Shown here one piece after another: positions 31,655 through 60,811 of a DNA stretch of 64,000 bases. The translations under genes were made by a program, and so were the position numbers. The DNA is from a phage. Position 1 is the first letter of the stretch. Every line of letters starts with the position of its first letter. The notes under the pieces are model-generated. The model saw only the letters and a list, made by a program, of their open reading frames with translations. It had not been told where the DNA came from and made no database searches. The stretch lies in the sequence record PZ386963.1, one strand, 5' to 3'.

Positions 31655-34021
31655 ATGCGCATGGTAAATGACCACGCAGAAGTGATTAAGAGTTCAACTT
31701 CTTTGGAGACATCTCAAGCACAGATTACAATGACACCTGAAATGTTCAGCCTTCTGAGTTCTGGTGTATACACATTCAAAGAAAGGGCAGTGATTCGTGA
31801 ACTGTCATGTAATGCAGTAGATGCTCAGAAAGAAGCTGGAAAAGAGAACATCCCATTCCATGTGCATTTACCTACTCGATTTGAGCCTTACTTTGAAGTC
31901 CGTGACTTTGGAACTGGTTTAACCCATGACAAAGTAATGAGTTTGTACCTGAACTACGGGGCTTCTACGAAGAATGACTCTAATGATTACATTGGTGCAA
32001 TGGGTATCGGCTCAAAATCACCATTTGCAATTGCTCAGTCATTCACAGTGTCTAGCTATGTTGATGGTGTTGTTAATAAGTACTCTGTTTACCTTGAGAA
32101 TGGTATCCCTCAAGTAACTAAGCTTACTACTAACCCAACAAATGAACCTAATGGCTTAGCTGTACGTGTGGCAGTTGCTGACCACCGTATTTCAAAGTTC
32201 TTTGAAGAGGCTGGTCACGTATACTCATACTTTGCTGTAAAACCAGAAAGTAACATTGTATATGATGATGTGTTAGCAGATATGAACGTCATTGCTCGTG
32301 AAGAAGGTGTTTATGATGCCATGATTCATAAGCAAAGCTGGCGTTCTAGTGGTAACAGGACAGAGTTTAATGTGGTGATGGGTAATATTGCCTATCCAGT
32401 GAACATGGAAGCATTACTTGGTGATGATTTCTTCAAAGTCTTGCCAGAGTTTTTCCGTAGGAGCGTAGACCTTGTAAACATTTACATGCCTATTGGTTCA
32501 GTCGCTATTGCAGCTTCTCGTGAAGCATTGCAGATGAATGATACGACAAAAAATGTTATCATTGAGGCTACTAAAAAGATAACTGAAGCAATTACAAAGG
32601 ATGTTATCAAGAAAGTTAATAGCCAACCTACACTCATGGATGCTGCACAGGCTTATGCAGAGTTACGTTTGAACTCACGAGAAATGTTTAATGCTGTGTG
32701 TCCAAAGCTAGAGTGGGGAGGTGTTAAGCTTGATTCTCTGGAAGAAGAATTGCTAAACATTCGTCGTGGGATTATCTACGCAGAAGACGGCTCAGTCATT
32801 TATGAACGTGACGGTAAAGGTAATATCAAGGTTGATAGGAACGGGAACAATATCCCTAAAGTGGATTATCTTTATAATCCAGTTGCTTATGTCAAGTTCA
32901 ACTCTTTAGAGAGTAAGATTCGTGCAACAGCACTTTCCTACACTCAAGAGGCAAGTATGTTCAATATCTTTGGTGCAATGCGTAAAAGCCAAATTGAACA
33001 GTTTTTGTTCGTGATAAATGACCGTCGTAATAAAAATGGCACTGAGAAGACTGTAGGCCGCAATCAGATTCTGCGTGGTGCATGTCGAGATTACGCCAAT
33101 GAGTCAAATCTGTTTCACAGATACAATGGTATTGTGTTTGTATTCTCGACTGAAAAAGAGTTAGATGATTTAATCAACCTGCATAAACTTGATAAAAGTT
33201 TGTTAAAGATTGTGAAAATGTCTGATAAGGAGCACCATTACCAGCGTAAAGAATCTGTCAGGGGTGTTGTAAAACTCTGGAAAGCAGTTCCGGCAGAAGG
33301 TGTAGCCTCCTACAAAGAGGTGTCAGAAGACTTAGACACAATTGAAGAACCTCAGCTTTACATTAAGGCAGTTGGTGACACAGTTGATGGCGAATGTTTT
33401 TGCTCATCTCCAGAAGATGTAGCTAAGTCAGTTGCTAATGTTATAGGGAAGACAGTCTATGTTTTCCGAAAAGCAAATTGGAAAAAGATACCAGAAGACT
33501 GGATTGAAGTAGATGAGAAGCTTTTGAACGACAGCTTAACTGATGTTCATTGGATTAATCATAACAGGTATATGACACGCATCTACATGAATGGTGTTCT
33601 TGACCTTACAAGCAGTTGGATTATTGCCAGAAACTTTACATTCAATAACAGGAAGATTTCTCGTGGCTATTGCTATTCACGAGATACTAGCAAAACTATC
33701 TTCCTAGAAGGTAATGAAGAGGCTGTAGAGGCTATGTTCGGTAAAATCCAGTATGTTGCTGCACCGTTTGCATACACTTACACTATTAGTAGATTGCAAA
33801 CTTTGAAAGAATGCCTTGACAATGATACAAAACTGTACAAGAAAATTAAGAAAGCTGGTGACCGCATGGTCATTAAGGTGACAAACTACCTTTCAAAAAG
33901 AAAACAAGAGAACTTCTTGCTTTCTCATTTAGATTGGAATAAAGTGTCACCCATCGAAGTGAGTAAGTTCTTAGGCTTTGATGTGAAGTGTGTTCCAGAA
34001 GGGACTACAATTTACGATTAA
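31655..34021 (+). CDS. rIIA: rIIA-like protein with N-terminal GHKL (Hsp90/histidine-kinase-type) ATPase domain
   Basis: IRELSCNAVDA, DFGTGLTHD, IGAMGIGSKS match GHKL N, G1, G2 boxes; 788 aa followed by rIIB-sized gene. Confidence 0.6.
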   Translation: MRMVNDHAEVIKSSTSLETSQAQITMTPEMFSLLSSGVYTFKERAVIRELSCNAVDAQKEAGKENIPFHVHLPTRFEPYFEVRDFGTGLTHDKVMSLYLNYGASTKNDSNDYIGAMGIGSKSPFAIAQSFTVSSYVDGVVNKYSVYLENGIPQVTKLTTNPTNEPNGLAVRVAVADHRISKFFEEAGHVYSYFAVKPESNIVYDDVLADMNVIAREEGVYDAMIHKQSWRSSGNRTEFNVVMGNIAYPVNMEALLGDDFFKVLPEFFRRSVDLVNIYMPIGSVAIAASREALQMNDTTKNVIIEATKKITEAITKDVIKKVNSQPTLMDAAQAYAELRLNSREMFNAVCPKLEWGGVKLDSLEEELLNIRRGIIYAEDGSVIYERDGKGNIKVDRNGNNIPKVDYLYNPVAYVKFNSLESKIRATALSYTQEASMFNIFGAMRKSQIEQFLFVINDRRNKNGTEKTVGRNQILRGACRDYANESNLFHRYNGIVFVFSTEKELDDLINLHKLDKSLLKIVKMSDKEHHYQRKESVRGVVKLWKAVPAEGVASYKEVSEDLDTIEEPQLYIKAVGDTVDGECFCSSPEDVAKSVANVIGKTVYVFRKANWKKIPEDWIEVDEKLLNDSLTDVHWINHNRYMTRIYMNGVLDLTSSWIIARNFTFNNRKISRGYCYSRDTSKTIFLEGNEEAVEAMFGKIQYVAAPFAYTYTISRLQTLKECLDNDTKLYKKIKKAGDRMVIKVTNYLSKRKQENFLLSHLDWNKVSPIEVSKFLGFDVKCVPEGTTIYD

Positions 34022-34100
34022 AGTGTTTGACAAGGGGCTTCAAAGCCCCTTAGAATAGCCTTACAAAATGGTTTATTAACTAACAAGAGAGAGTAATAAG

Positions 34101-35331: not shown

Positions 35332-35880
35332 ATGAAGAAATTGATTCTAGGTTTGTGCTTAATGTTTACAGCACACTTATCTTATGCAGTTGACTGCCCA
35401 GAGCTATCAATTAGCCAAAAAGTAAACATGTTAAAAGCTTACCAGTATGGTGAGAATAACATGGGTAAAGGTTGGGGTATCACTCTAGCTGCTATAGCCT
35501 TACAAGAGTCAGAGTTAGGTCTGAAGGTAGAGAATAAAAAGACACATGATTATGGTATTTTCCAGAATCACTTGAAGACTGTTGTAAAGCGTAACAAAAT
35601 TAGCCCTAATGTGGCTAAAAAGAAACTCTTAAAAGACTTTGACTATGCTGCGAAGGAAACACACAAAGAACTTGAGTTTTGGACAAAGGTGCATGGTCAG
35701 CCAAAGTCAAAGAAGACTTTACAAAAAGTTTTAGCATCATATAATGCTGGGTATTCGTACAGAATCCCTAAAGCTAAGAAATATTCTCAAGATGTCTATA
35801 ACAATATGAAAGTAATCGCTCAATGTGAATTTGCAACAAACATTTCTAAGGTAAACCATGAAAAAATTAAGAAAGTCTGA
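35332..35880 (+). CDS. Secreted lytic transglycosylase (SLT-domain) protein
   Basis: Signal peptide MKKLILGLCLMFTAHLSYA; AIALQESELG and SYNAGYS motifs. Confidence 0.55.
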   Translation: MKKLILGLCLMFTAHLSYAVDCPELSISQKVNMLKAYQYGENNMGKGWGITLAAIALQESELGLKVENKKTHDYGIFQNHLKTVVKRNKISPNVAKKKLLKDFDYAAKETHKELEFWTKVHGQPKSKKTLQKVLASYNAGYSYRIPKAKKYSQDVYNNMKVIAQCEFATNISKVNHEKIKKV

Positions 35881-38879: not shown

Positions 38880-39665
38880 ATGGGTATTGTAAAAATCATC
38901 AATGGTGATATCTTTGCTGCATTTGATAAAGGTAAGTTTGACATCATTGGTCATGGTTGTAACTGTATGAACCTAATGGGTGCAGGTATCGCTGATAAGA
39001 TTTCTAAACTTTACCCAAAAGCATATGAGACCGATACAGAAGTTTATCTATATGCAGGTGGTATAGGCCACAAACCCTGTGAAAATTTACTGGGTAATTT
39101 CTCCGTAGCACGTTTAAAACAAGGTCGTATAGCTAACCTTTACACTCAGCTTAAGACTGGTAAAGATGCACGATACAGTGCTTTAGAGTCATCTTTGAAA
39201 CAGCTTAACAGATACTGTGAAGTTAACCAGTTGAAGAAGGTTGGTCTACCTATGATTGGTGCAGGTATCGGTGGACTTGACCCTCAAGCTGTCACAGTTA
39301 TCATCAATCAGGTGATGAAGGGTGTAGATGTTTATCTGTATGTCTATGAAGGAGAGATGTACCACAAGTTACGCTCAGGTTGGAAGAACTACTGTGAACC
39401 AGAATACTTTGCAGGTGTAGCAGTGTTCACAGATAACGCAGTTACCCTCTTCAGACGAAGAAAAGGTAAGATACATCAAAGTAACCCTCCGGTTGAAAAG
39501 ATGTCTCTAAGTAATGCTCTAGTTACCCACCTGTCGAAGAGCAATCACAGAATTGCTGTAACATTTGGTAGTGATGCAGAAGCTTATATCTATGCAAGAA
39601 CTGATGAGGATATCGAGGCAATCTTCTCTTCACCAGAAGTTACCTTCTTAGACGCAAAGAACTAA
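38880..39665 (+). CDS. Macrodomain protein, TARG1/OARD1-like (ADP-ribose binding/hydrolase)
   Basis: INGDIF...IIGHGCNCMNLMGAGIA matches the glycine-rich MGAGIA loop of TARG1-type macrodomains. Confidence 0.55.
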   Translation: MGIVKIINGDIFAAFDKGKFDIIGHGCNCMNLMGAGIADKISKLYPKAYETDTEVYLYAGGIGHKPCENLLGNFSVARLKQGRIANLYTQLKTGKDARYSALESSLKQLNRYCEVNQLKKVGLPMIGAGIGGLDPQAVTVIINQVMKGVDVYLYVYEGEMYHKLRSGWKNYCEPEYFAGVAVFTDNAVTLFRRRKGKIHQSNPPVEKMSLSNALVTHLSKSNHRIAVTFGSDAEAYIYARTDEDIEAIFSSPEVTFLDAKN

Positions 39666-39716
39666 GAAACTTCGTAGTATATTCACAATAGACTAAGCCT
39701 TTCTTATCTGGTAAAT

Positions 39717-39925
39717 TTTTCAGGTAAGGAGGGCTTTTTCATTTCAGATTTGTGCAGGTAAAGTTCTGTAGAGAAATCTATAGAGAAAATTTTGAACTCC
39801 AAAGAGAAAATTCATTTTCAAACTGTGCAGGTAATCTCCAAAGAGCTTTTTCATTTTCAAAACGTGCAGACCCCGCTCAGGTCGGGCAAGAAAAATCATT
39901 TTAGAATTGTGCAGGTAGGTGGGTG
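39717..39925. repeat. Four to five degenerate direct repeats (~TTTTTCATTTTCARAnTGTGCAGGTA) in ORF-free spacer
   Basis: Copies near 39735, 39807, 39845, 39891. Confidence 0.55.
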
Positions 39926-40092
39926 TAGGTGGGGCTGTCGCCATTTCTCACAAGGCTACCACATCTGAAAATAAAAGTCAACAGAAAAATTTGTAGCGGA
40001 TTGAAAAATAATTCTTGATTGTAGTTCTGTTTTGTGTTAGTCGTGCGCGCCCGTTTCATTCCATTTTTGCAAAAATATTTTTAAAATTCCTA

Positions 40093-40121
40093 TTGACTCT
40101 TTGAGTATGGTTATCTAATAT
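40093..40121 (+). promoter_or_regulatory. Sigma70-like promoter heading the small-gene array
   Basis: TTGACT - 17 bp - TAATAT. Confidence 0.5.
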
Positions 40122-40171
40122 TTGCATCAGACGGGCAATCAAGCCCACTTCCTAAACTGGAGAATCTAAAA

Positions 40172-40378
40172 ATGCTTTACAGTCGTGAATTGATGGTTAC
40201 AACTAACGTTAACACAAAGGTAAAACGTTTTTACATGCAAATTTGTGGCGTATGGTCTAGAATATCAGAGGCTGACTATTGCAACTATGTAGAAACAGCT
40301 ATAAACTCTAATTGCTACCTTACAAGAAATACTAAGAATTTTACAAGGCAAACAGCGATTTGCTATTACGATAAATAA
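40172..40378 (+). CDS. Cassette gene 1, hypothetical
   Basis: 68 aa; leader CTAAACTGGAGAATCTAAAAATG. Confidence 0.4.
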   Translation: MLYSRELMVTTNVNTKVKRFYMQICGVWSRISEADYCNYVETAINSNCYLTRNTKNFTRQTAICYYDK

Positions 40379-40380
40379 AA

Positions 40381-40465
40381 GTACTTTACATGGGGCTTAA
40401 AAGTCTGTAAAGTAAGCCCCAGATAAAGAGCTTTACCAACAACCTTAAACTAGGAGAATCTGAAA
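40381..40465 (+). promoter_or_regulatory. Cassette head type A: promoter-like TTTACA/TAAAGT + GGGGCTTA/TAAGCCCC stem-loop + conserved leader/RBS
   Basis: Stem-loop and AGATAAAGAGCTTTACC...TAAACTAGGAGA leader conserved across copies. Confidence 0.55.
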
Positions 40466-40846
40466 ATGGCATATCGCGCACCTAAATTCATCAACAAAGA
40501 CAACTTTCGCAACGCACTGGAGAAGTCACTTGATGAGGATTTTAAAGGCAATGTTATTGTTGTCCACGCATTCAATTTTAAGTATGATATTAACGGGAAC
40601 AGAATCAACCATTACACGGCAACAATGTTAGATGGCACACTTTCAAGTGAAAAAGCCATTATCAATGCACTTGCAGGACGTGGGAAAAACCTGATAAGAT
40701 GCGATAAGAGACGTTATCAAGGTGGCGCATATGGTTACGATGATGCTATCTATCATCTTGAGAATATGGGCTATCTAGTAGAAAAAGCGGGAGCGCCCCA
40801 AATTATTGGTAGTGATGGCTATGTAACAATTTTCAAAATTAACTAA
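40466..40846 (+). CDS. Cassette gene 2, hypothetical
   Basis: 126 aa. Confidence 0.45.
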   Translation: MAYRAPKFINKDNFRNALEKSLDEDFKGNVIVVHAFNFKYDINGNRINHYTATMLDGTLSSEKAIINALAGRGKNLIRCDKRRYQGGAYGYDDAIYHLENMGYLVEKAGAPQIIGSDGYVTIFKIN

Positions 40847-40850
40847 TAAA

Positions 40851-40934
40851 GTACTTTACAAGGGGCTTAGTAGTTGATACCTTAAGCCCCAGATAAAGAG
40901 CTTTACCACTAAATCCTAAATTGGAGATTCTAAA
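40851..40934 (+). promoter_or_regulatory. Cassette head type A
   Basis: Same stem-loop/leader as 40381. Confidence 0.55.
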
Positions 40935-41225
40935 ATGGCTATTATCAAAAACGTTGTAATTACTGCAAAAACTCGCGATGACGCTCGTGTTATGGCTAAA
41001 AAGTTATGCGGAAAAGTAGTTGACAACGGAAAACAATCTGCTGTAAGATGGGGCGTAAAGGTTGATAAACATTTAACCTTGAAACGCAGTTCAAATAACC
41101 TTTTTAAAGGTGTGGAAACACTCGGTAAAACAAACGTATACACTAAAAAATCATATATCAAACGCGTAGCCTTAACCTCCCCCATTCGAACAATCAGAGG
41201 CTATGCAAAACTGAAAATTAACTGA
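40935..41225 (+). CDS. Cassette gene 3, hypothetical basic protein
   Basis: 96 aa. Confidence 0.45.
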   Translation: MAIIKNVVITAKTRDDARVMAKKLCGKVVDNGKQSAVRWGVKVDKHLTLKRSSNNLFKGVETLGKTNVYTKKSYIKRVALTSPIRTIRGYAKLKIN

Positions 41226-41229
41226 TAAA

Positions 41230-41314
41230 GTACTTTACAGGGGGCTTAAAAGTTGATATCTTAAGCCCCAGATAAAGAGCTTTACCACTAAATCCTTAAA
41301 CTAGGAGATTCAAA
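41230..41314 (+). promoter_or_regulatory. Cassette head type A
   Basis: Same stem-loop/leader. Confidence 0.55.
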
Positions 41315-41827
41315 ATGAAAACTGTAGACGCTACTTTTGAAGTTGTAAAAGAAAAATTCACTATTATTTATGAAGCGGTAAATTGCTACGAAGCAAGCCA
41401 TAATCTTGATAATTGGAAGTTTACAGATGACCATCAAGGCGGCGTGACTGTTAAAAACCCTAACTGTCAGCGTAACGATTTTAAATATGCAATCCCTTTA
41501 AATTATAGCCTTAAACAGCTTTCTAGTGACTATGCAAAACAAGGCCGGGAAAATCCATCAAAAGAGGCTTACATCAGCTTACAGGAAGAACTAGAAAGAG
41601 ATTTAGAGGCTTCAGAATACAACCTTGCCGCGAAAGTTGTCGATGCAAATGGTCAAACAATTTTAGACAGTTTTTATATTGGTTACGCTTTCGATTGGTG
41701 CTATAGTGACGGTGATGATTTAGAGGATAGACTAAAAGAAGAGGTGAGCAATTCAGACGCAGAGACTGAAGTATTAGAACGTTTGGAATCATTAAAAGAT
41801 GCAGTGATGAATATCTTTAAAAACTAA
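41315..41827 (+). CDS. Cassette gene 4, hypothetical acidic protein
   Basis: 170 aa. Confidence 0.45.
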   Translation: MKTVDATFEVVKEKFTIIYEAVNCYEASHNLDNWKFTDDHQGGVTVKNPNCQRNDFKYAIPLNYSLKQLSSDYAKQGRENPSKEAYISLQEELERDLEASEYNLAAKVVDANGQTILDSFYIGYAFDWCYSDGDDLEDRLKEEVSNSDAETEVLERLESLKDAVMNIFKN

Positions 41828-41834
41828 ATAGATT

Positions 41835-41916
41835 TCTTTACACGGGGTTATCAAGCTGATAAGATAGCCCCAGATAAAGAGATTTACCACTAAATCCTTA
41901 AACTAGGAGATTCAAA
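41835..41916 (+). promoter_or_regulatory. Cassette head type A (variant stem)
   Basis: GGGGTTATC...GATAGCCCC stem-loop plus conserved leader. Confidence 0.5.
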
Positions 41917-42213
41917 ATGAAATTATCAAATAAAGTTAGGGAAAACCTTAGCAAATTACTCAATAAAATTGATTTTATCGAGACATCAAGAAATAGTCAT
42001 GATGTTATGGAATGGTTACACGGCAAAATAAAAGGCCGTCGTGTGGTGATTTGCTTATGGAATAGTTGCAGGGAGTATAAAAAACCTGTATTACAAGTTA
42101 ATATATACGATAATACTTTTAAAAGCCCTGTAAAGTCTAAAAGCGATTTATTAGAAGCCTATGAGATAACTGTAAGTGGCAAAGTATCACGTAAAGAGGA
42201 ATCACCATGCTAA
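41917..42213 (+). CDS. Cassette gene 5, hypothetical
   Basis: 98 aa. Confidence 0.45.
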   Translation: MKLSNKVRENLSKLLNKIDFIETSRNSHDVMEWLHGKIKGRRVVICLWNSCREYKKPVLQVNIYDNTFKSPVKSKSDLLEAYEITVSGKVSRKEESPC

Positions 42214-42539
42214 TGACTGGCATCACTGCAATTATAGCCATTTTCGCGCTCTATAAGGCATATAAAGCCTATAATTTAGCAGATAAGGCAATCACACAGC
42301 AGGTTAGCAATAACCTCGTAATGAGCTTTCTAGAGCGTTTAAGTGATGAGCAAATAAAGCGGCTAGAGATGAGCTTCAGATATAAAGCGAAAACCTATCA
42401 GATAAGTGACATCTTCAAAGATGATTTTCAGTTAGTTGATGATTATAATTCTCTGATAAATGCTTTAAATATCAGTGACTTAAAAGACTACTACGCTGTA
42501 ATTGTTCAAGAATTGAGCAAACGAAAACAAAGTGTTTGA
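42207..42539 (+). CDS. Cassette gene 6, membrane-anchored hypothetical (no own cassette head; overlaps gene 5)
   Basis: 110 aa, hydrophobic N-terminus. Confidence 0.4.
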   Translation: MLMTGITAIIAIFALYKAYKAYNLADKAITQQVSNNLVMSFLERLSDEQIKRLEMSFRYKAKTYQISDIFKDDFQLVDDYNSLINALNISDLKDYYAVIVQELSKRKQSV

Positions 42540-42629
42540 CACTGATTTTTAGATAGATTAAATTACACATCAACGGGGAGGGAATGACCTTCCCCACTAA
42601 ATAAAGTCCTTAAACTAGGAGATTCTAAA
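42536..42629 (+). promoter_or_regulatory. Cassette head type B: TTGACA-17-TAAATT promoter + GGGGAGGGAATGACCTTCCCC stem-loop + conserved leader
   Basis: Canonical -35/-10 spacing; stem-loop at transcript 5' end. Confidence 0.6.
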
Positions 42630-42902
42630 ATGTATACTACTAACAACGGTCGTACTTTAAATGTCACTCTACGTCACTATGTAGATGGTGTAATGTGCTT
42701 TGAGGATTTACGGGCTGAACAACACATCTTAGATTGGCAAGTAGCAGGACTCCAAAAAACTGCTACCGGATACGGTAAAAAGATTCCAACCAGTTGGAAA
42801 GTACACTACGAAGGGCGTTTGCGTAGAATTTATCAAGATGTTTGTAGCAATAGCGCATCGAGTTACATCATGGTAAAAGGTAAAAAGCTGCATTTAGTGT
42901 AA
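42630..42902 (+). CDS. Cassette gene 7, hypothetical
   Basis: 90 aa. Confidence 0.45.
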   Translation: MYTTNNGRTLNVTLRHYVDGVMCFEDLRAEQHILDWQVAGLQKTATGYGKKIPTSWKVHYEGRLRRIYQDVCSNSASSYIMVKGKKLHLV

Positions 42903-42988
42903 AGTACTTTACAAGGGGCTTATAGTTCGATAAAGTAAGCCCCAGATAAAGAGCTTTACCCCTAAATCCTAAATTGGAGAACTTAAAA
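42903..42988 (+). promoter_or_regulatory. Cassette head type A
   Basis: Same stem-loop/leader. Confidence 0.55.
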
Positions 42989-43393
42989 ATGGCTATTAAT
43001 AACCGTGAGTTATCAATCTTAAAAGCACGTTTGACCGTTAACCGGATTAATGTTATCACGTCATCAGCGCCTGATGAGACATTGCACAACATTATCGGGA
43101 AGATTCAAAGCGTTATCTTAGACGTTGAAAACGTAAAAAAATCATTGGCTGACGTTGCAGCAGGTATCACGCTAGACGGCGCACAATATGAAATGTCCGA
43201 CATGTTAGGCAAATCAAAGGTAATGAATAAAGAATTAGACTTGAAAATGTTTCGATTTGCTGTCAAAGTGTGGCTATCTGTCGAGTATGACGCTAATTTT
43301 GCAATCGCTGATTTCTTTGCCACTTGGTTACAACGTAATTTGACAAATCACGATTTTCGTGATGTCTGTGATGCAATTTATGCAGAACTCTAA
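42989..43393 (+). CDS. Cassette gene 8, hypothetical
   Basis: Start at MAINN behind GGAGA RBS. Confidence 0.45.
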   Translation: MAINNRELSILKARLTVNRINVITSSAPDETLHNIIGKIQSVILDVENVKKSLADVAAGITLDGAQYEMSDMLGKSKVMNKELDLKMFRFAVKVWLSVEYDANFAIADFFATWLQRNLTNHDFRDVCDAIYAEL

Positions 43394-43402
43394 AAAATTT
43401 TG

Positions 43403-43497
43403 TTGACACTGGTTTTTAGATAGATTAAATTACACATCAACGGGGAGGGAATGACCTTCCCCACTAAATAAAGTCCTTAAACTAGGAGATTCTAAAA
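43403..43497 (+). promoter_or_regulatory. Cassette head type B
   Basis: Near-identical to 42536-42629. Confidence 0.6.
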
Positions 43498-43701
43498 ATG
43501 GCTATTATCAACGGCTTACACATTGAAACAACTCACATCAAAGATATTAAAGTTGGTGATGTAGTCCTTTCCCACGGCGTAGAGAAAACTGTCACTGCAA
43601 AGGATATCAAAGAGGATTCTTTCATGGGTAGGACTCTCTTCGGTGATTCTTATTGCTTAGGGTATCTTGCAGTTTTAAAAGTTGTCAAAAATAACAAATA
43701 A
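43498..43701 (+). CDS. Cassette gene 9, hypothetical
   Basis: 67 aa. Confidence 0.4.
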   Translation: MAIINGLHIETTHIKDIKVGDVVLSHGVEKTVTAKDIKEDSFMGRTLFGDSYCLGYLAVLKVVKNNK

Positions 43702-43787
43702 AGTACTTTACAAGGGGCTTAAAAGTTGTTACCTTAAGCCCCAGATAAAGAGCTTTACCACTAAATCCTAAACTGGAGATTCAAAAA
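43702..43787 (+). promoter_or_regulatory. Cassette head type A
   Basis: Same stem-loop/leader. Confidence 0.55.
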
Positions 43788-44333
43788 ATGAAATGCTTTC
43801 ACGGTACTACTCAAGAAAACTTTATCAACCTGATTAATAATGGTGATAAGCCATCAGGTGCATGGAATTGTTCGGATATGGATGGCAATTTTTACGTATA
43901 CCCAGAAAATAAAATCTATGGTGACGATGAGGAAGAGATAGTATCCGAAGGTATTCAACAGGCGTTAGGAAATGCCACTATCACGGCAGCTTTCCAGATG
44001 AAAACCCAAAACATTGTTATCTTGGAACTTGATATTCCAGAGGATGAATTAAATGATGATTATTCTTGTGATAATATGTCTGGCGTAGCAAGTTTTACAG
44101 AATACTTCGATTTAAATTGGATTAAAAAGGTTTACGTAACCGAGTTTAATGCGATGTTTTCGCCTTTTTGTCTTCCTTCATTGGATAACCCAAATTTAAA
44201 CTATCTTGATGAGTCTCTGGAGCTTCTTGCTAAAAGCGTTCAACAGTCGGACAGTATTCAGGTTTTTTGTGACATCATGGATACACTGGCAGGAAACATC
44301 GCAGAAGAGGATTTAAAGAGCTTTTTTTTTTAA
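43788..44333 (+). CDS. Cassette gene 10, hypothetical acidic protein
   Basis: 181 aa. Confidence 0.45.
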   Translation: MKCFHGTTQENFINLINNGDKPSGAWNCSDMDGNFYVYPENKIYGDDEEEIVSEGIQQALGNATITAAFQMKTQNIVILELDIPEDELNDDYSCDNMSGVASFTEYFDLNWIKKVYVTEFNAMFSPFCLPSLDNPNLNYLDESLELLAKSVQQSDSIQVFCDIMDTLAGNIAEEDLKSFFF

Positions 44334-44399
44334 AAACCTATGCAATCACCTTATAAACACTAATCAGCCCCTTGTAGGGGCTTTTAGAGGGCTTAAATC

Positions 44400-44633
44400 A
44401 TGCTAACAACCGTTTATCTCATCCTCTCAATTTGTAATGGCCATTCATGTGACTTTAAAGGGCTTGAAGAGTTTACAGGAAGTAAAGAAAATGCCATTCA
44501 GGTGTGCCAGATAGCAAGGCAAGACTATCCCGCCAGTGATGACATTCAATGTTACTTTAAGACAGAAGATAACGACGGAATCTACTTCGATAGTGTTGAT
44601 GGTCAATATGAAATTATCATTGAAAAAGACTAG
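44400..44633 (+). CDS. Cassette gene 11, small hypothetical protein
   Basis: 77 aa; preceded by a different hairpin CCCCTTGTAGGGGC. Confidence 0.4.
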   Translation: MLTTVYLILSICNGHSCDFKGLEEFTGSKENAIQVCQIARQDYPASDDIQCYFKTEDNDGIYFDSVDGQYEIIIEKD

Positions 44634-44724
44634 ACAAGCCTGATAAAAGTCTGTAAATTGTCAATCAACGGGGAGGGAATGACCTTCCCCACTGAATAAA
44701 GTCCTTAAACTAGGAGATTCTAAA
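44631..44724 (+). promoter_or_regulatory. Cassette head type B
   Basis: TAGACA-17-TAAATT, GGGGAGGGAATGACCTTCCCC stem-loop, conserved leader. Confidence 0.55.
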
Positions 44725-45066
44725 ATGGCTTATGTAACCGTAATTACCGATAAAGCTGGCGCATCTTGGTCAACTCAGGTTAGTGATAAGATGACACCTA
44801 TGCAGTGCCTAAAATACTTTGAACAGTGGAACAAAGGTGAGGATACAAGCCCCTTTCAAGTGATGCAAATTATCCATATAGACAATGAAGGGAAGAAAAC
44901 AACTCTGAATAGTGAGTACTACGCAAGCCGTTTTGAAACGAGAAGTAAAGCAATGAAGCTCTTACGTGAGGCCGGATATGGTCACATTGCCGCGATAATC
45001 TGGGATGACCTTCTAAAAAGTCAGCGTATCAGCTATGTAAAACCTGAAAAAATATTCATCAGTTAA
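44725..45066 (+). CDS. Cassette gene 12, hypothetical
   Basis: 113 aa. Confidence 0.45.
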   Translation: MAYVTVITDKAGASWSTQVSDKMTPMQCLKYFEQWNKGEDTSPFQVMQIIHIDNEGKKTTLNSEYYASRFETRSKAMKLLREAGYGHIAAIIWDDLLKSQRISYVKPEKIFIS

Positions 45067-45196
45067 TCAATAACTTACAAAAAACTTTTAAAAAAGTGTT
45101 GACAATACCCCTTGACATTGGTAACTTTGTTCGAGGGGGTTTATCTAAAAGGGATTCACTTAAAAGATTCTTTATAGATAAGCTTAAAAAATTGCT

Positions 45197-45285
45197 TGCA
45201 ATCAGCTATCAAAACAAGTAAATTAATAATCAACGGGAGGGATGACCTCCCCACTAAATAAAATCCTTAAACTAGGAGAGTCAAA
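45197..45285 (+). promoter_or_regulatory. Cassette head type B (variant)
   Basis: TTGCAA-17-TAAATT, GGGAGGGATGACCTCCCC stem-loop, conserved leader. Confidence 0.5.
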
Positions 45286-45816
45286 ATGAACAAGTTTAAA
45301 GCTATCAACTACATTCGTTCAAATGCTGTAATGTCTAAGCCTGTTAAAGACACATATGAGTTCCGTTGTAATGGGGTACACTTTGCAACCATCACCAAAT
45401 CAGAAAACGGGGCTTATTATATCCATCGTCGTAATGTTGCAACCGTTGCAGTCTCTCACTTTATGCAAGCTGTAGCGGAATTATTACCGTTATTCTTAGA
45501 GATTTACTTAGATGAGTGTAAAAACGTTCGTAACCACGTTAAAAACCTTTTAAACGGTTATAAAATGGCTTATGAACGTTCTATCAAGTCCTTAAACAAG
45601 TTTTATAAAGCCCCTGTAAATACTGTTTCAATGGCTTACAGTGTAAGCGGTGAGTTGGTTAGCCTCTTCGAAGTGGAAGAAATCGAACTCTATGACTCAC
45701 GTCCTAGCGGTTACTCTAAGACACTGGGAGAAGGCTTAACGTTCAATATCAAGAACTTAGAAAAAACTTTAAAAGATATTGAAAAAGATATTGACGAAAC
45801 AATCAAAAGTCTGTAA
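45286..45816 (+). CDS. Cassette gene 13, hypothetical
   Basis: 176 aa. Confidence 0.45.
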   Translation: MNKFKAINYIRSNAVMSKPVKDTYEFRCNGVHFATITKSENGAYYIHRRNVATVAVSHFMQAVAELLPLFLEIYLDECKNVRNHVKNLLNGYKMAYERSIKSLNKFYKAPVNTVSMAYSVSGELVSLFEVEEIELYDSRPSGYSKTLGEGLTFNIKNLEKTLKDIEKDIDETIKSL

Positions 45817-45895
45817 ATTGTCAATCAACGGGGAGGGAATGACCTTCCCCACTAAATAAAACCCTTAATCAACTTCCTAAACTGGAGATTCTAAA
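45791..45895 (+). promoter_or_regulatory. Cassette head type B
   Basis: TTGACG-17-TAAATT inside 3' end of upstream gene; stem-loop plus leader. Confidence 0.55.
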
Positions 45896-46144
45896 ATGGC
45901 TACTATCCGCGCAACTGTTAACGAATTTGGCTTCTACTCTCTGGACGTTAAATTTGACCTTGTAGGTACTGATAACGCCTTTGAAATGGTGAAAGGCCTT
46001 ATCAGTCAGACCATCAGTGACTACAACCCCTCCGATGAATTCTGGGAGGAAACAAAACAGGAAGTTCTTACGCATGGTCACACTTATCACTATTGGGGAG
46101 AAAAAATCGTCTCCCTGTACTACGACAAAGAAGGCACTAACTAA
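45896..46144 (+). CDS. Cassette gene 14, hypothetical
   Basis: 82 aa; followed by hairpin GGGGCTAAATAGCCCC. Confidence 0.45.
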   Translation: MATIRATVNEFGFYSLDVKFDLVGTDNAFEMVKGLISQTISDYNPSDEFWEETKQEVLTHGHTYHYWGEKIVSLYYDKEGTN

Positions 46145-46229
46145 ACGCCGCAACGGGGCTAAATAGCCCCAGATACCTTTACAGCCCCTTAAATGGGGCT
46201 TTTTTACGTCTATCGAATCCTTATACAAC

Positions 46230-47800
46230 CCCTTTCCTTCTCCTTTCTAGAATCTTATCAGACCTTAAAAGCAATAACTCTATAGTCTACTCTATAGCCT
46301 TTTATCAAATCAGTTTAAATATAAGCCCATAACCCGAAAGGGAAGGGCAACCACTAAAACGCTCTATAACGCCCTATAACAGCCTTATCAACCTAACTTA
46401 AGGTATTGCATTACCTCACCCTTAAAAGCCCTTTATAGAGCTTCTTAGAGCCTTAAAAGAATCTTATAAGTGTGTAAGCTTTATCATCTCGTTAGTATTC
46501 TTGTGAACTACTATAAAGGACTTGTTAGTGTCTTAAAAGTATGTTATAGGGGCTGTTAAGTTACTTTGAAGTAGCTTAAAAGTTACGTAAAAGAGGCTAT
46601 GAAGTTACGTAAATGCTAGCCCCCTTAACATTTTCTTAACAATTTCTTAACAAACCCTACATAGTTATGCTTGTTAGCCCCTTGTTAAATCTCTGTTAAG
46701 ACCACGTAAAAGCTTTGTAAGAGTCTTTGGCATAGCCTTAAAAGCTCCTGTAAAGCCATATAAAGAGCTATCTGTACAGTTGGGGTGTAACTACTAGGAA
46801 GAGACTTAAAAGAGCCTATACAGAGCTATAGAGAGCTTTTAAAAGGTATGTTTAAGGAATCACTAAGAAAGGAAAGGGAACGATAAGAAAGAAGAGTTGT
46901 GTTTGTAAACAACCACTGTGACCATGTTAATAGCTTGTTAAAAAGATTAAACACTTGTTAGGAACTTGTTAATTATCTTAACAAAATAACTCTTAAAAAT
47001 TAACTTGTTAGCTCTTGTTAGTCATCTGTTAAGCCTCTGTAAAGACTATTCAGCACTTGTTAGGAAACTGTTACACCCTTGTTAGTTCTGTTAAGAAACT
47101 GTTAAGACCTTTGAAGAGTTGTTAATAAGATGTGAGAACTGTTAAGAGATTGTTAAGGATATTTTAAAATTTTGCAAAGTACTTGTAAGGGAGCTGTTAA
47201 GGGCTACCAAGCAGATATACATCCTAGACAGATATTTTTCAGTTCCTTCAAAGACCCTAAAAAATGACTTGACAGTCCTATTTTATAAAAATTTTAAAAT
47301 TCTGAATAATTACCTATACAGTCTTTTAAAAATACAGGTAGAAACAGGCTTATAAGATACCTTGTTAGTACCGTGTTAGACCTTGTGAGATAAGGTCTGT
47401 AAAGATATTCCTGTTAAGTTTGTTAAAACAGTCTATATAGAGGCTTAGTAATACCTAGTGAACACCTATAGAGGTGTATCATAGCTGACATAGAGATTAA
47501 GAGGTGTATAGGAGCTTCTAAGAGGGTGTAGAGGGATGGTTAAGGTAATTGTATAGGTTGTTAAGAAGGCTTGTTAGAAGAGTGTTTAGAAGGCTTGTTA
47601 GAGGGCTAGTTAGAAGGGTTATACAGAGGGGCTATTAAGACCACTAGATAGATACTAAGATACTATATAGTACTATATAACTATATAGAGAGTAAGATTA
47701 AGAAGATTGTTAAGAAGGATAGATATTTTGTTCACATATGATGGTGACCCAGAGGTTGGGACAACCGATAAAATTTTATAAAAATTAAAAAGCCCCCAAT
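46230..47800. repeat. About 1.6 kb ORF-free region saturated with short degenerate repeats (CTTGTTAG / CTGTTAAG / CTTAAAAG / CTGTAAAG families, both orientations)
   Basis: Dozens of 7-9-mer copies; no ORF of 60 aa or more on either strand; sits between convergent gene blocks. Confidence 0.7.
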
Positions 47801-58248: not shown

Positions 58249-58325
58249 CTCTGTTTAGCTCAGCTTGGTAGAGCGTTCCGTTTGGGGCGGTAAGGCCGGA
58301 GGTTCAAGTCCTCCAACAGAGACCA
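58249..58325 (+). tRNA. tRNA-Pro (anticodon TGG), CCA encoded
   Basis: Cloverleaf by eye: acceptor CTCTGTT/AACAGAG, D-arm GCTC/GAGC, loop TTTGGGG, T-loop TTCAAGT. Confidence 0.7.
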
Positions 58326-58332
58326 AATTAAT

Positions 58333-58410
58333 GTTCCAGTAGACAAAATGGTAAAGTCACCACTCTTTCAAAGTGGATATCTGAGGGTTCAAATCCCTTC
58401 TGGAACGCCA
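58333..58410 (+). tRNA. tRNA-Glu (anticodon TTC), CCA encoded
   Basis: Acceptor GTTCCAG/CTGGAAC, anticodon stem CCACT/AGTGG, loop CTTTCAA. Confidence 0.65.
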
Positions 58411-58416
58411 GTTTTG

Positions 58417-58492
58417 ACAGAAGACCAATTACAGCAAACTTAATCTTATTCATCTGAAGGTAAATCGGACAAAGAAGAGATTTGGTCTGGTC
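58417..58492 (+). ncRNA. Conserved inter-tRNA hairpin element, copy 1 (candidate small RNA or processing signal)
   Basis: ACAGAAGACCAATTACAGCAA at 5' end pairs with TTGGTCTGG at 3' end. Confidence 0.35.
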
Positions 58493-58502
58493 ATTAAGAA
58501 TT

Positions 58503-58578
58503 GCGGGTATAGAGAAAGGGCGTCTCACATGTCTCATTAGCATGGTATCGGCAGGTTCGACTCCTGCACCCGCCTCCA
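58503..58578 (+). tRNA. tRNA-Met/Ile2 (anticodon CAT) with unpaired position 1-72
   Basis: D-stem GAGA/TCTC, anticodon stem CATGT/GCATG, loop CTCATTA, T-arm GCAGG/CCTGC. Confidence 0.55.
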
Positions 58579-58583
58579 AATTT

Positions 58584-58650
58584 ACAGAAGACCGTTTACA
58601 GCAATATTTATTAAATTTTTAGCGGAAAAATTGAAAGATACGGTCTGGTA
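58584..58650 (+). ncRNA. Conserved inter-tRNA hairpin element, copy 2
   Basis: ACAGAAGACCGTTTACAGCAA ... ACGGTCTGG. Confidence 0.35.
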
Positions 58651-58661
58651 ATACTAAACAT

Positions 58662-58738
58662 GGTTAGGAAGCACATAAGGTATGTGCGGTCGCCTGTTAA
58701 GCGAATGGCACAGGGTTCGAATCCCTGACTAACCGCCA
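58662..58738 (+). tRNA. tRNA-Asn (anticodon GTT)
   Basis: D-stem GCAC/GTGC, loop CTGTTAA, T-arm CAGGG/CCCTG, 3' end ACTAACC-G-CCA. Confidence 0.65.
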
Positions 58739-58807
58739 AATTTAGGAGAGAAGCGATTGCTCACCGATTTGTAAGGTGCAAGTCCTTAGCCTGAATAGAA
58801 ATTAAAT

Positions 58808-58895
58808 GTGTCGTTATCCCGTAGATGGTAGCGGTGGGGACTGTAAATCCCTTGTCATTGAGACTCGGTAGGTTCGACTCCTACACGGCACACCA
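58808..58895 (+). tRNA. tRNA-Tyr (anticodon GTA), long variable arm
   Basis: Acceptor GTGTCGT/ACGGCAC, loop CTGTAAA, 15-nt variable arm, T-loop TTCGACT. Confidence 0.65.
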
Positions 58896-58900
58896 ATAAA

Positions 58901-58978
58901 GGTTATGTAGTTTAATTTGGTTAAAATACTCCCCTGTCACGGGAGATGATGAGGGTTCAAATCCCTTCGTAACCGCCA
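58901..58978 (+). tRNA. tRNA-Asp (anticodon GTC)
   Basis: Acceptor GGTTATG/CGTAACC, anticodon stem CTCCC/GGGAG, loop CTGTCAC. Confidence 0.65.
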
Positions 58979-59038
58979 ATTTTGAGAGGGCTATTTAGCC
59001 CCTCCCTTAAAGAGTTCTTACGAGTATTCTTTAAAGGA

Positions 59039-59113
59039 GCAGAAGACCAAATACAGCAAGTTACTTAAAATTTCAAGCCAATTTAATTTTGAAAAATTTA
59101 AAACTTGGTCTGG
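59039..59113 (+). ncRNA. Conserved inter-tRNA hairpin element, copy 3
   Basis: CAGAAGACCAAATACAGCAA ... TTGGTCTGG. Confidence 0.35.
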
Positions 59114-59125
59114 CTCAACAAATTT

Positions 59126-59258
59126 ACAGAAGACCGTTTACAGCAAAACTTAAACAATCTATTTCTCGGTAAAGAAAAGGTGAAGGTTCGATTCCTTCAC
59201 TCGGCAGATGTCGAGTTGGTGTAATGGTAGCACTTAAGATGATAAACAACGTTCTGGT
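59126..59258 (+). ncRNA. Conserved element copy 4 containing tRNA-like T-arm and D-arm fragments
   Basis: ACAGAAGACCGTTTACAGCAA ... GAAGGTTCGATTCCTTC ... GTTGGTGTAATGGTAGCAC ... AACGTTCTGG. Confidence 0.3.
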
Positions 59259-59402
59259 AATTATCTTTGTAGATAAGTTATTAAGCTTACCTGTGAGTAT
59301 GCGACCACAAAGGGTGAAAGGGTAAATTCTAGATTTAAACCCAAAAAGGCACATCGCTACAGACCTTAAGCAAGTCTGGGTAGCTTATCTACAAAGATAA
59401 TT
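59257..59402 (+). ncRNA. Candidate structured RNA closed by a 17-bp long-range inverted repeat
   Basis: TTATCTTTGTAGATAAG (59261-59277) is the exact reverse complement of CTTATCTACAAAGATAA (59386-59402), enclosing ~108 nt. Confidence 0.35.
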
Positions 59403-59406
59403 TAAT

Positions 59407-59482
59407 GGAAGTGTAGCAGAATGGTGATGCGGCAGACTTTTAATCTGACAGGCGATGGGTTCGAATCCCTCCACTTCTACCA
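59407..59482 (+). tRNA. tRNA-Lys (anticodon TTT), weak T-stem
   Basis: Acceptor GGAAGTG/CACTTCT, loop CTTTTAA, T-loop TTCGAAT; two T-stem mismatches. Confidence 0.55.
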
Positions 59483-59486
59483 AAAT

Positions 59487-59563
59487 GGTTCAGTCGCAGA
59501 TAAGGTAATGCAAGGGTCTCATAAGCCCTATGAATGTGGGTTCGAATCCCATCTGAACCTCCA
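59487..59563 (+). tRNA. tRNA-Met/Ile2 (anticodon CAT)
   Basis: Acceptor GGTTCAG/CTGAACC, anticodon stem AGGGT/GCCCT, loop CTCATAA. Confidence 0.65.
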
Positions 59564-59565
59564 AT

Positions 59566-59640
59566 TGTGGGTTAGCATAAATGGTAATGCAAACGGCTGA
59601 TAACCGTTAGAAGAGGGTTCGATACCCTCACCTACAACCA
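59566..59640 (+). tRNA. tRNA-Ile (anticodon GAT)
   Basis: Acceptor TGTGGGT/ACCTACA, anticodon stem AACGG/CCGTT, loop CTGATAA. Confidence 0.6.
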
Positions 59641-59655
59641 ATTTCAATAAAGTTG

Positions 59656-59684
59656 TTGACATTGAAATGTGACTACTTTATAGT
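59656..59684 (+). promoter_or_regulatory. Sigma70-like promoter inside the tRNA cluster
   Basis: TTGACA-17-TATAGT; flanked by ATTTCAA/TTGAAAT inverted repeat. Confidence 0.5.
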
Positions 59685-59977
59685 AACTAAAATACTTCAT
59701 AATATGTATAATTCAAACACCAATACATGAGCGTTAGACGTAACACAATGTGGGGAAATTTGTTGTACATATTCTGAATAGTTTTCGTTGCGTAGCGTCT
59801 ATTTTGCAAATTTAAAATAAATGCAAACGACAATGTTTTTCTGGCAGTAGCTTGATAGGCTAAACACCAGTGAGGTCTTCCAATCCCTCATCAAAGAATT
59901 TGGCGTACTCGCCCACGGTATGATTAATAAGGTGGGCATCTTTAAGGGCTTTCTAAGAGAGTCTTTAAAGATAATTA

Positions 59978-60059
59978 CGGGGCGTATCTCAGCGGTCTTC
60001 TAAACCGCCGTTAACCGAGTAAGTGGAGTATGCGGGTTCGAGTCCTGCCGCCTCGACCA
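59978..60059 (+). tRNA. Atypical tRNA-like gene (possible Arg, anticodon TCT); D-arm not resolvable
   Basis: Acceptor CGGGGCG/CGCCTCG, stem-loop GCGGT-CTTCTAA-ACCGC, T-arm GCGGG/CCTGC, CCA encoded. Confidence 0.4.
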
Positions 60060-60285: not shown

Positions 60286-60298
60286 AAGTCTTATTATG

Positions 60299-60722: not shown

Positions 60723-60729
60723 AATTAAT

Positions 60730-60805: not shown

Positions 60806-60811
60806 GACATT

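Follow-up and report, generated by a model that had tools for sequence, protein, structure and literature searches.

The 64,000-nucleotide (nt) stretch of phage DNA analysed here (sequence record PZ386963.1; the whole stretch is called the window) carries, between positions 40172 and 46144 (~6 kb), an array of 14 small open reading frames (ORFs) on the + strand, which encode proteins of 67–181 amino acids (aa) and are named w2 to w15. Twelve of the 14 stand behind a short promoter-like element, here called a head: six heads belong to one repeated type (A), five to a second (B), and the first ORF follows a distinct promoter (P0). A sequence-only reading of the same DNA had placed a head before 13 of the ORFs, but w7 and w12 have none. 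We read the region as a variable ('hyperplastic') array of early genes in a Felix O1-type myovirus, and we consider it probable that the heads are promoter-bearing cassettes that also mediate modular exchange, in the manner of the promoter-early stem-loop (PeSL) cassettes of T4-type phages.

The small-gene array and its heads

To place the array, positions 40000–46300 of the window were used as a megablast query against 50,697 phage records. The query matched 257 records, all with Felix O1-like phage names (Escherichia, Salmonella, Shigella, Citrobacter) and the best at ~91–92% identity; a 'Staphylococcus' phage record, SA1, showed a 91.5% match over the whole array. The records that were opened are filed in the Ounavirinae (Felixounavirus, Mooglevirus, Suspvirus, Kolesnikvirus), with the exception of PMBT37, which is filed only as Caudoviricetes. 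By these matches the window phage is a Felixounavirus (Ounavirinae), a Felix O1-type myovirus, and not the T5-like phage that it was first taken for. The array lies downstream of a macro-domain 'phosphatase' gene (38880–39665; Pfam Macro) and its terminator, and ends at a terminator at 46183–46206. Its counterpart in Felix O1 is formed by genes 14–23, between terminators t13 and t23: the terminator at 39695 has the same sequence as t13 and is also annotated as a terminator in AYO145A, and the one at the array end corresponds to t23. The features are listed below in order, where -17- denotes the spacer in nt that parts the -35 box from the -10 box, SD the Shine-Dalgarno sequence and bits the score against a covariance model of the type A heads.

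39695–39744, +, intrinsic terminator at the upstream array border: 17-pair hairpin and T-run, closing the macro-domain unit
40093–40171, +, P0, the first head: TTGACT-17-TAATAT (40093–40121), hairpin GGGC-AATCAA-GCCC (40133–40146), leader CCTAAACTGGAGAATCTAAAA, ATG
40172–40378, +, ORF w2, 68 aa: accessory, in 17 of 29 arrays; phrog_5293, function unknown
40379–40465, +, type A head 1: -35 TTTACA 40385–40390, -10 TAAAGT 40408–40413, extended hairpin; 82.2 bits
40466–40846, +, ORF w3, 126 aa: phrog_4495, function unknown
40847–40934, +, type A head 2: TTTACA-17-TGA-TACCTT; 87.1 bits
40935–41225, +, ORF w4, 96 aa, basic (isoelectric point 10.7): phrog_5089; alleles of 96/97 aa and 85 aa in relatives
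41226–41314, +, type A head 3: TTTACA-17-TGA-TATCTT; 89.8 bits
41315–41827, +, ORF w5, 170 aa, acidic: accessory, missing from 6 of 29 arrays; phrog_4190
41828–41916, +, type A head 4, compensatory variant: GGGGTTATC/GATAGCCCC, lower stem AGATTTCTTTA/TAAAGAGATTT with 12 contiguous pairs; 76.9 bits
41917–42213, +, ORF w6, 98 aa: in 29 of 29 arrays; phrog_4401
42207–42539, +, ORF w7, 110 aa, hydrophobic N-terminus: no head; 7-nt overlap with the end of w6
42536–42629, +, type B head 1: TTGACA-17-TAAATT, 10 nt, hairpin GGGGAGGG-AATGA-CCTTCCCC (42575–42595), leader, SD
42630–42902, +, ORF w8, 90 aa: in all arrays; phrog_3436
42903–42988, +, type A head 5: TTTACA-17-TAAAGT; 83.1 bits
42989–43393, +, ORF w9, 134 aa: in all arrays; phrog_4327; start at ATG 42989, not TTG 42974
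43394–43497, +, type B head 2: AT-rich upstream tract, TTGACA 43403-17-TAAATT 43431, hairpin 43442–43462
43498–43701, +, ORF w10, 67 aa: accessory, in 18 of 29 arrays; an unrelated 82-aa gene stands in its place in Mooglevirus and Suspvirus
43702–43787, +, type A head 6: TTTACA-17-TGT-TACCTT; 88.9 bits
43788–44333, +, ORF w11, 181 aa, acidic: predicted ADP-ribosyltransferase-like fold
44366–44386, +, internal terminator-like hairpin: GCCCC-TTGTA-GGGGC and TTTT (four T), 14 nt 5' of the w12 start; kept in most arrays
44400–44633, +, ORF w12, 77 aa: no head; in 28 of 29 arrays
44631–44724, +, type B head 3: TAGACA (its TAG is the w12 stop)-17-TAAATT, hairpin 44670–44690
44725–45066, +, ORF w13, 113 aa: in all arrays; phrog_4318
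45098–45126, +, extra near-consensus promoter TTGACA-17-TAACTT, inside a conserved 219-nt spacer (45067–45285) without a sizeable ORF
45196–45285, +, type B head 4, variant: TTGCAA-17-TAAATT, hairpin GGGAGG-GATGA-CCTCCC
45286–45816, +, ORF w14, 176 aa: phrog_4725
45791–45895, +, type B head 5: TTGACG-17-TAAATT, hairpin 45830–45850, leader with an 11-nt insertion
45896–46144, +, ORF w15, 82 aa: in all arrays; two allele classes, ~90% and ~55–60% identity
46155–46206, +, two array-ending hairpins: GGGGCTAAATAGCCCC, then AGCCCCTTAAATGGGGCT and TTTTTT (the intrinsic terminator, 46183–46206)

The 14 proteins are mutually unrelated, falling into separate BLAST families and separate PHROGs, as the sequence-only reading had proposed. 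That reading had also described two repeat families, whose consensus sequences it gave essentially correctly, with a sigma70-like -35/-10 pair at 17-bp spacing and a common 3' leader and ribosome-binding site, and on each of these counts it is borne out. The 11 type A and B heads, cassettes of 85–105 bp, all lie within 40.1–46.2 kb of the window, and the -35/17 nt/-10 geometry is present in every copy. Every head ends in GGAG-N7–9-ATG, and the leader C(C)TAAAyT(A)GGAG-N-ATG has 12 sites in 64 kb, all inside the array; for the leader and type B hairpin patterns, 0.00 matches are expected in shuffled sequence. The repeat unit is longer than first described: the stop codon upstream belongs to it, as do the first four to five codons of several genes (ATGGCTATTAT). 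Four unrelated genes have these first codons in common (40932–40948, 42986–43002, 43495–43511 and 45893–45909; MAII/MAIN/MATI), and it seems that the repeat unit, or else the recombination junction, extends into the ORFs by a few codons.

Predicted promoters and hairpins within the heads

The type A heads are built in a constant order: a stop codon (TAA-AGTACTTTACA...), an AT-rich tract, TTTACA, 17 nt, (TGn)TAnnnT, a ~47-nt unstructured leader, the GGAG SD and ATG. An alignment and covariance model were made from 61 distinct heads of 14 genomes in four genera. The TTTACA-17-TAnnnT geometry is found in 61/61 heads, usually with TGn before the -10, and CTTTACA is 100% conserved. The same DNA, as RNA, has a 68-nt fold, a ~20-bp imperfect hairpin. 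Its top stem consists of 9 bp of G/C; a 3x3 internal loop separates this from a lower stem of 11–12 bp, which is composed of 5 bp, a 1x1 mismatch and 5–6 bp, or of 12 contiguous pairs in one lineage. The top stem, GGGGCTTA...TAAGCCCC, lies between the -35 and the predicted start, with the -10 in the loop and 3' arm, and the lower stem has the -35 box as its 5' half. Fold energies lie between -24 and -28 kcal/mol (z between -3.1 and -6.0); head 4, in which pair 10-60 has changed from GC to UA, folds at -27.6 kcal/mol (z -5.97). The six window copies score 77–90 bits against the model, and the next + strand match in the 64 kb scores 21 bits. This weak match (34014–34079), the sole one outside the array on the + strand, was rejected as a further type A head, being a different promoter with a hairpin in its spacer (34020–34062; TAA-AGTGT-TTGACA-AGGGGCTTCAAAGCCCCT-TAGAAT); it lies between ORFs of 788 and 376 aa that are rIIA/rIIB by position relative to Felix O1.

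In the type A head the pairing is kept, and several unpaired positions are conserved. When pairs were counted, limited to in-register columns and leaving out the upper-stem pairs past the sixth (MAFFT had put a 1-nt length difference in the 3' arm), 97.9% of cells in the alignment pair, versus 31–58% when the 3' partner is slid by one to three columns. Pair 10-60 has undergone compensatory GC-to-UA change in 8 sequences, and pair 23-47 in 6 (from Erwinia phages, in the GGTG/CACC form); G·U pairs valid on the + strand only occur at pairs 25-45 (UG in 27/61), 11-59 (UG in 55/61) and 8-62 (GU in 9/61). This covariation would represent perhaps three or four independent events among related sequences and is supportive, not decisive. 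In the loop, G35 (92%), T37 (100%), A38 (100%) and T42 (98%) are conserved, as is A30 (93%), and columns 39–41 are near random; A30 aside, the strongly conserved loop positions are those that sigma70 reads. The -35 ends in C18 and A19, both invariant yet unpaired in the fold. The loop thus carries the information pattern of an extended -10 (TGnTAnnnT), which is hard to explain as an RNA loop.

Since transcription is predicted to begin at the A that follows the 3' arm (CCCC-AGA), the type A hairpin would lie outside its own cassette's transcript, and it would therefore form only in sense RNA coming from upstream. Two ORFs also point to such RNA. There is no recognisable promoter in front of w12 (44400–44633), and without a head its expression must be by read-through; w7 is probably translationally coupled to w6, the w6–w7 spacing being -6 in every genome compared. 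The covarying hairpin and these promoter-less ORFs together imply both the existence and the importance of read-through transcripts.

Taken to its limit, this would make the array one operon, running from the promoter at 40093 to the terminator at 46183, in which the heads are RNA signals (processing or stability hairpins plus leader) and the promoter hexamers are incidental. The RNA-like character of the type A hairpin, with its covariation, its + strand-only G·U pairs and its dependence on upstream-derived RNA, speaks for such an operon, as do the lack of U-tracts at the A and B hairpins, the lack of own promoters at w7 and w12, and a region-wide promoter scan only weakly above shuffles (33 sites vs 22.8 ± 4.4). 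Against it, the few strongly conserved positions of the loop include those that sigma70 reads (TGn-TA---T), set 17 nt in every case from a TTTACA that is invariant although its last two bases do not pair, and it is not obvious why an RNA loop should keep the positions that sigma70 reads; the type B heads have a near-consensus TTGACA-17-TAAATT with AT-rich upstream tracts and several -35 and spacer alleles of the same geometry; and the array genes peak at different times in Felix O1. We regard the single operon as rather improbable.

In a further reading, which we hold to be possible but unlikely, the type A heads are dual-coded. As DNA the head would be an extended -10 promoter; as RNA made from upstream it would be a two-stem hairpin like those of phage T7, cleaved so as to equalise the mRNAs. 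In the early genes of T7, transcripts are processed by RNase III at the hairpins R0.3–R1.3. These resemble type A in being repeated intergenic hairpins in an early co-directional run, with two stems, upper and lower, that are parted by an internal loop and together make about two helical turns; they differ in containing no promoters, and the likeness is one of shape only. An RNase III-like shape of this kind (9 bp, 3x3 loop, 11–12 bp) is seen in type A and is conserved with covariation. The cut would fall in the invariant 3' strand of the internal loop (A-G-A after CCCC), for example by RNase III, and, as in T7-style cleavage, it would leave a protective 3' hairpin on the upstream message; the downstream 5' end (AGAUAAAGAG...) would be the same as that of promoter-initiated RNA, and each gene would stand on an equivalent monocistronic mRNA regardless of promoter. 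The upstream macro-domain protein, YmdB-like (an RNase III inhibitor) according to others' annotation, would hint at phage control of the cleavage.

The symmetry of the type A flanks admits yet another explanation, namely that they are operators, with 12-bp palindromes TAAAGTACTTTA (over the -35) and TAAAGAGCTTTA (~+5 to +16) that bind a dimeric phage or host repressor, which would shut off or time the type A promoters. The motif TAAAGNNCTTTA occurs 11 times in the window versus 0.24 expected, nine of them in type A heads, where they bracket the core promoter at 45–47 bp start to start; the 5' copy is a perfect palindrome, and differential control of type A and type B genes would fit the mixed 5-min and 25-min timing of array genes in Felix O1. 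However, the two sites are mutually complementary via G·U pairs, which spoil the symmetry of the DNA (U·G at pair 11-59 in 55/61), their outer halves vary compensatorily with no single half-site consensus, the motif is not in type B or other promoters, both non-array copies of TAAAGNNCTTTA are inside coding sequence, and no candidate repressor was identified. Operators would be compatible with the heads as promoter-bearing exchange cassettes; we nevertheless give them a low probability.

Turning to the type B heads, the order is -35, 17 nt, -10 TAAATT, 10–11 nt (...ATCAAC), a 4–8-bp G-rich hairpin, and the same leader and SD as in type A. The -35 alleles are TTGACA, TAGACA, TTGCAA and TTGACG, and the spacer alleles vary too, with constant geometry. 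Stop codons of the preceding genes are built into the promoter boxes: TGA of w7 in TTGACA at 42537, TAG at the beginning of TAGACA at 44631, and TAA of w14 at the beginning of TAAATT at 45814, the -35 box of type B head 5 thus lying within the coding end of w14. Two type B promoters are already annotated as promoters in AYO145A. Stem sequence varies and pairing is kept (GGGGAGGG/CCTTCCCC, GGGAGG/CCTCCC, GGGGAGG/CTTCCCC, GGGGC/GCCCC, GGGA/TCCC, GGGC/GCCC). With a predicted start 7–8 nt past the -10, the stem is predicted to begin 2–4 nt from the mRNA 5' end.

A stem-loop near the 5' end of an mRNA protects it from 5'-end-dependent RNase E decay. The stem-loop in the 5' untranslated region of Escherichia coli ompA is said to act as such a stabiliser, as Emory, Bouvet and Belasco reportedly described in 1992, and the type B hairpin is like it in its constant position 10–11 nt after the -10 and ~2–4 nt from the predicted 5' end. 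By this analogy a 5' stabiliser role is suggested for the type B hairpin. Of the proposal that every gene forms its own unit and has a structured 5' end, the structured 5' end would apply to type B only; the proposal fails for type A, where the hairpin lies between the -35 and the predicted start, and for w7 and w12.

Plain intrinsic termination, with the hairpins insulating each gene, is how some records annotate these elements: the KhF1 record has a 'terminator' annotation under a type B head match, and PeSL stem-loops cut lacZ read-through as strongly as rrnB T1 (PMC2839356). By terminator scan and sequence inspection, none of the A and B hairpins has a U-run behind it, and as canonical terminators they therefore do not qualify; on the + strand the scan flags 39695–39736 and 46183–46200 alone, and the hairpin at 44366–44382 has just four T. 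In addition, the type B hairpin is 3' of its own promoter, where efficient termination would abort its gene, and w7 and w12 need read-through. We consider plain terminators of this kind very unlikely.

Structured RNA is also predicted downstream of the extra promoter at 45098. The 98 nt 3' of it fold into a long hairpin (-20 kcal/mol, z -3.4), and the counterpart of the spacer 45067–45285 in Mooglevirus holds a 46-aa ORF; the transcript of the spacer may be a small RNA or a structured leader.

Variation of the array among related phages

To see how widely the heads occur, one head of each type was used as a blastn query (word size 11) against the same 50,697 records, with taxonomy taken from record names for most. 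Type A matched 288 records at 1,428 places, 29 Erwinia phages included, and type B matched 248 records at 1,335 places; the names are those typical of Felix O1-like phages (Escherichia, Salmonella, Shigella, Citrobacter, Erwinia), with single 'Staphylococcus' and 'Campylobacter' records. Array content was then compared in 29 complete arrays from GenBank and IMG/VR. They measure 4.4–8.0 kb and hold 32 gene families in 26 arrangement strings, part of whose differences are head-classification noise. Gene order is largely collinear and content is variable: six genes are present in 29/29 arrays, w5 is missing from 6, w10 from 11 and w2 from 12, and an extra gene, x1, is present in 15. An identical content and order throughout was not seen, and the ORFs between the heads differ between relatives.

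Several of these differences have their junctions in the heads. Relatives without the first gene have the P0 promoter joined, at ...GCATCA|ACGGGG, to the hairpin and leader of a type B head. Felix O1 lacks w3–w4 and w10–w12 and has at each site a single chimeric head, whose 5' part matches the left head of the window and whose 3' part matches the right one. Five genomes without w5 retain the w4-side head, and the single head at this deletion is likewise counted as chimeric. Genes x1 and x2 come as insertions or replacements. Gene x2 replaces w10 between B and A heads, or is added as 'x2 plus an A head', and the head before it is of type A in one genome and of type B in another; gene x5 occupies two positions, since three Felixounavirus genomes have it at the array start and Mooglevirus has it between w12 and x6; in Erwinia phages the array order is rearranged. 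Promoter, hairpin and leader sub-modules combine differently at the same position in different phages. The earlier suggestion that the heads provide homology for exchange thus agrees with what relatives show, with genes gained, lost and replaced at junctions inside heads. Within the genus, shuffling is real but modest, mostly presence or absence and not reordering.

Empty tandem type A heads were also seen, in Mordin (L003, 3631–3760) and in one further array (L034), between two w4 copies, and in the latter the ATG of one head is joined directly to the next CTTTACA; they look like scars or intermediates of cassette excision.

Heads at different positions resemble one another as much as those at the same position do. 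Identity is 85.5% among paralogues within a genome, 82.3% at the same position across genera and 82.0% at different positions across genera, and the Erwinia type A copies all carry the GGTG/CACC double change. As judged from these comparisons, the heads are evolving in concert.

An integron-like array, in which the hairpins are attC-like sites for a site-specific recombinase, resembles these data on the surface only, in that imperfect palindromes of ~60 nt, interrupted by internal loops, separate small and unrelated ORFs of one orientation and variable content. Crossovers at varied places in the heads and homogenised paralogous heads fit general homologous recombination instead; by inspection the heads do not match the attC core sites (RYYYAAC/GTTRRRY), no integrase or recombinase is among the annotated genes in or flanking the array in the related records fetched, and the cassettes here carry their own promoters, which integron cassettes do not. 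We consider this explanation extremely unlikely.

The cassette reading, its setting and its significance

Among known systems, the closest counterpart of the array is the PeSL cassettes of the T4-type phages RB49/phi1, PST/T4 and nt-1/KVP40 (Arbiol et al. 2010, PMC2839356; Comeau et al. 2014, PMC4122927). Both have a stop codon in AT-rich DNA, sigma70-like -35/-10 boxes, a GGGG...CCCC stem-loop, an SD and ATG; in both the stem-loop is placed between the boxes, overlapping the -10, or just downstream of the -10; and both are concentrated in a variable region before ORFans, with cassette-bounded indels and G·U (G-T) stem pairs. The likeness to PeSLs noticed at first sight thus extends to every architectural feature that can be tested on sequence (PMC2839356). 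The differences are of several kinds. PeSLs are heterogeneous and number ~50 per genome, whereas the array has two tightly conserved head families of fixed geometry; type A has an extra covarying lower stem, giving a ~20-bp hairpin that swallows the -35 box; and the array has one shared leader and SD, no U-tracts and some promoter-less genes, so that insulation of its cassettes is probably weak. No sequence homology to T4-type elements was found, the head blastn hits in the 50,697 phage records being confined to records with Felix O1-like names. The array heads would accordingly be analogues, not homologues, of the T4-type PeSLs in another subfamily (Ounavirinae), cases that the PeSL authors call 'PeSL-like' (PMC2839356). 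The analogy is the best available explanation; the array is likened to PeSLs from its sequence, and the promoter, terminator and mini-circle features of PeSLs are known from T4-type phages.

Two further systems share part of this design. Lambdoid 'morons' (Hendrix et al. 2000), as discussed in PMC2839356, are single accessory genes with their own promoter and hairpin; in that discussion they have no conserved homology at their flanks, and illegitimate recombination is their supposed way of insertion, whereas the array flanks are a repeated element. Halovirus HF2, according to the abstract of PMC8707807, has two classes of repeated intergenic sequence that reporter assays showed to be promoters; it is an archaeal virus with archaeal promoters, and that abstract does not mention a hairpin or shared leader.

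If the heads are promoter-bearing cassettes that mediate exchange, the array would work as follows. Host sigma70 RNA polymerase would start at each head soon after injection, and the array would be read as nested co-directional transcripts ending at the terminator at 46183–46206. The type B hairpin would act as a 5'-terminal mRNA stabiliser; the type A hairpin, in RNA from upstream, could act as an attenuator, a 3'-end protector or a processing site; and the shared leader and SD would offer a standard translation start to any inserted ORF. Homologous recombination between heads would delete, insert or replace whole ORFs with their neighbours unharmed, because the heads are near-identical and span exactly stop codon to ATG, and would also homogenise the heads. 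The Felix O1 genome paper of 2010 offers data on timing: its reverse-transcription PCR (RT-PCR) table assigns array ORFs 16, 20, 21 and 22 to 5 min, and to 25 min it assigns ORFs 17, 19 and 23. This timing, crude as it is, fits early expression from more than one unit.

Several points weigh against this reading, some on the promoters and some on the exchange. Promoter activity and transcription starts of the heads are predicted from their sequence; no transcriptome of any Ounavirinae phage was found in the literature, and the RT-PCR timing data of Felix O1 are end-point and crude. The -10 hexamer TACCTT, found in two of the six type A heads, is weak and relies on TGn, and the conservation of CTTTA could come partly from pairing and not from -35 function. 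The A and B hairpins lack a U-tract, which makes the terminator role shown for PeSLs doubtful here, and the promoter-less w7 and w12, with their obligatory read-through, weaken the picture of transcriptionally insulated cassettes. As for exchange, Felixounavirus gene order is largely conserved, and whole-gene indels fall intergenically anyway, so that specific support comes only from the chimeric heads, the empty heads and the moved genes.

What the array genes do is less readily told. None of the 14 ORFs has a Pfam hit, and all their PHROGs are of unknown function, so that the anti-defence content once suggested for the region is unproven. A prophage defence, GiPD474, does discriminate among phages of this kind, Felix O1 and Alf5 being sensitive and VpaE1 not (PMC12724215). 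The one structural lead is w11, whose AlphaFold model, built with 14 homologues, has a predicted local distance difference test score (pLDDT) of 72.6 and a predicted template modelling score (pTM) of 0.71; H5, Y36/Y38 and E80 are conserved on successive strands, and Foldseek matches of the model to viral structures are weak (template modelling score 0.35–0.4). The predicted ADP-ribosyltransferase-like fold fits a host-takeover role, as a lead and not as proof.

RegB-type shut-off of early mRNAs was considered, given the invariant GGAG SD and a gene labelled 'T4 endoribonuclease RegB' in Erwinia phage phiEa104, and was dropped, the window homologue (35332–35880) being without a RegB domain. This homologue has a signal-peptide-like N-terminus and a weak, sub-threshold Pfam hit to SLT transglycosylase; it and the phiEa104 'predicted T4 endoribonuclease RegB' (L010, 48–560) look like secreted SLT-type transglycosylases, and the phiEa104 label is probably an annotation error.

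The DNA on both sides of the array is itself rich in repeats. Upstream, at 39730–39914, within a 500-nt non-coding stretch from the terminator to the first array promoter, are four direct repeats of ~35–40 nt (...CTCCAAAGAG-N-TTTTTCATTTTCAAAnnGTGCAGGT) that are conserved in Mooglevirus and Suspvirus; could they be iterons or regulator sites? Downstream, 46230–47800 is 1.6 kb of non-coding DNA with dense short repeats, for which two related records carry repeat_region features; TGTTAAG has 11 copies there versus 16 in the other 62 kb and is inverted (CTTAACA) near 46625–46650. This region may be an origin of replication or a genome-end or packaging region. Of five IMG/VR metagenome contigs from related phages (L014–L016, L021, L036), four stop 300–415 nt past the macro-domain gene, just 5' of the first array promoter, and the fifth, L014, stops ~1.4 kb past that gene, within the array; a physical genome end (terminal repeat) may thus adjoin the array, in which case the array genes would be the first into the cell. 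Farther off, 24 tRNA genes are clustered at 58249–63553 (+), which is what a Felix O1-type genome would be expected to have; an Rfam scan of the whole window at gathering threshold returned these 24 tRNAs only, with no match in the array.

Earlier descriptions touch on the heads in passing. The Felix O1 genome paper of 2010 lists their sequences only as '57-bp and 39-bp direct repeats' and states that how transcription proceeds around the terminators, and its timing, 'is not known'; the Mordin record has 14-bp repeat_region features just 5' of ribosome-binding sites, apparently part of the leader. In the literature on these elements we found only generic promoter and terminator counts besides the 'direct repeats' remark, and other journals may hold a description.

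Felix O1-type phages serve as typing and biocontrol agents for Salmonella and E. coli. Read as cassettes, the heads give a testable map of early transcription for the subfamily, with 12 predicted starts in 6 kb, and a mechanism for the accessory early-gene differences among otherwise near-identical phages, and they would be compact, ready-made expression and insertion sites for phage engineering. A PeSL-style architecture would then have arisen outside the T4 group, which supports repeated regulatory linkers as a general route of modular evolution in large lytic phages.

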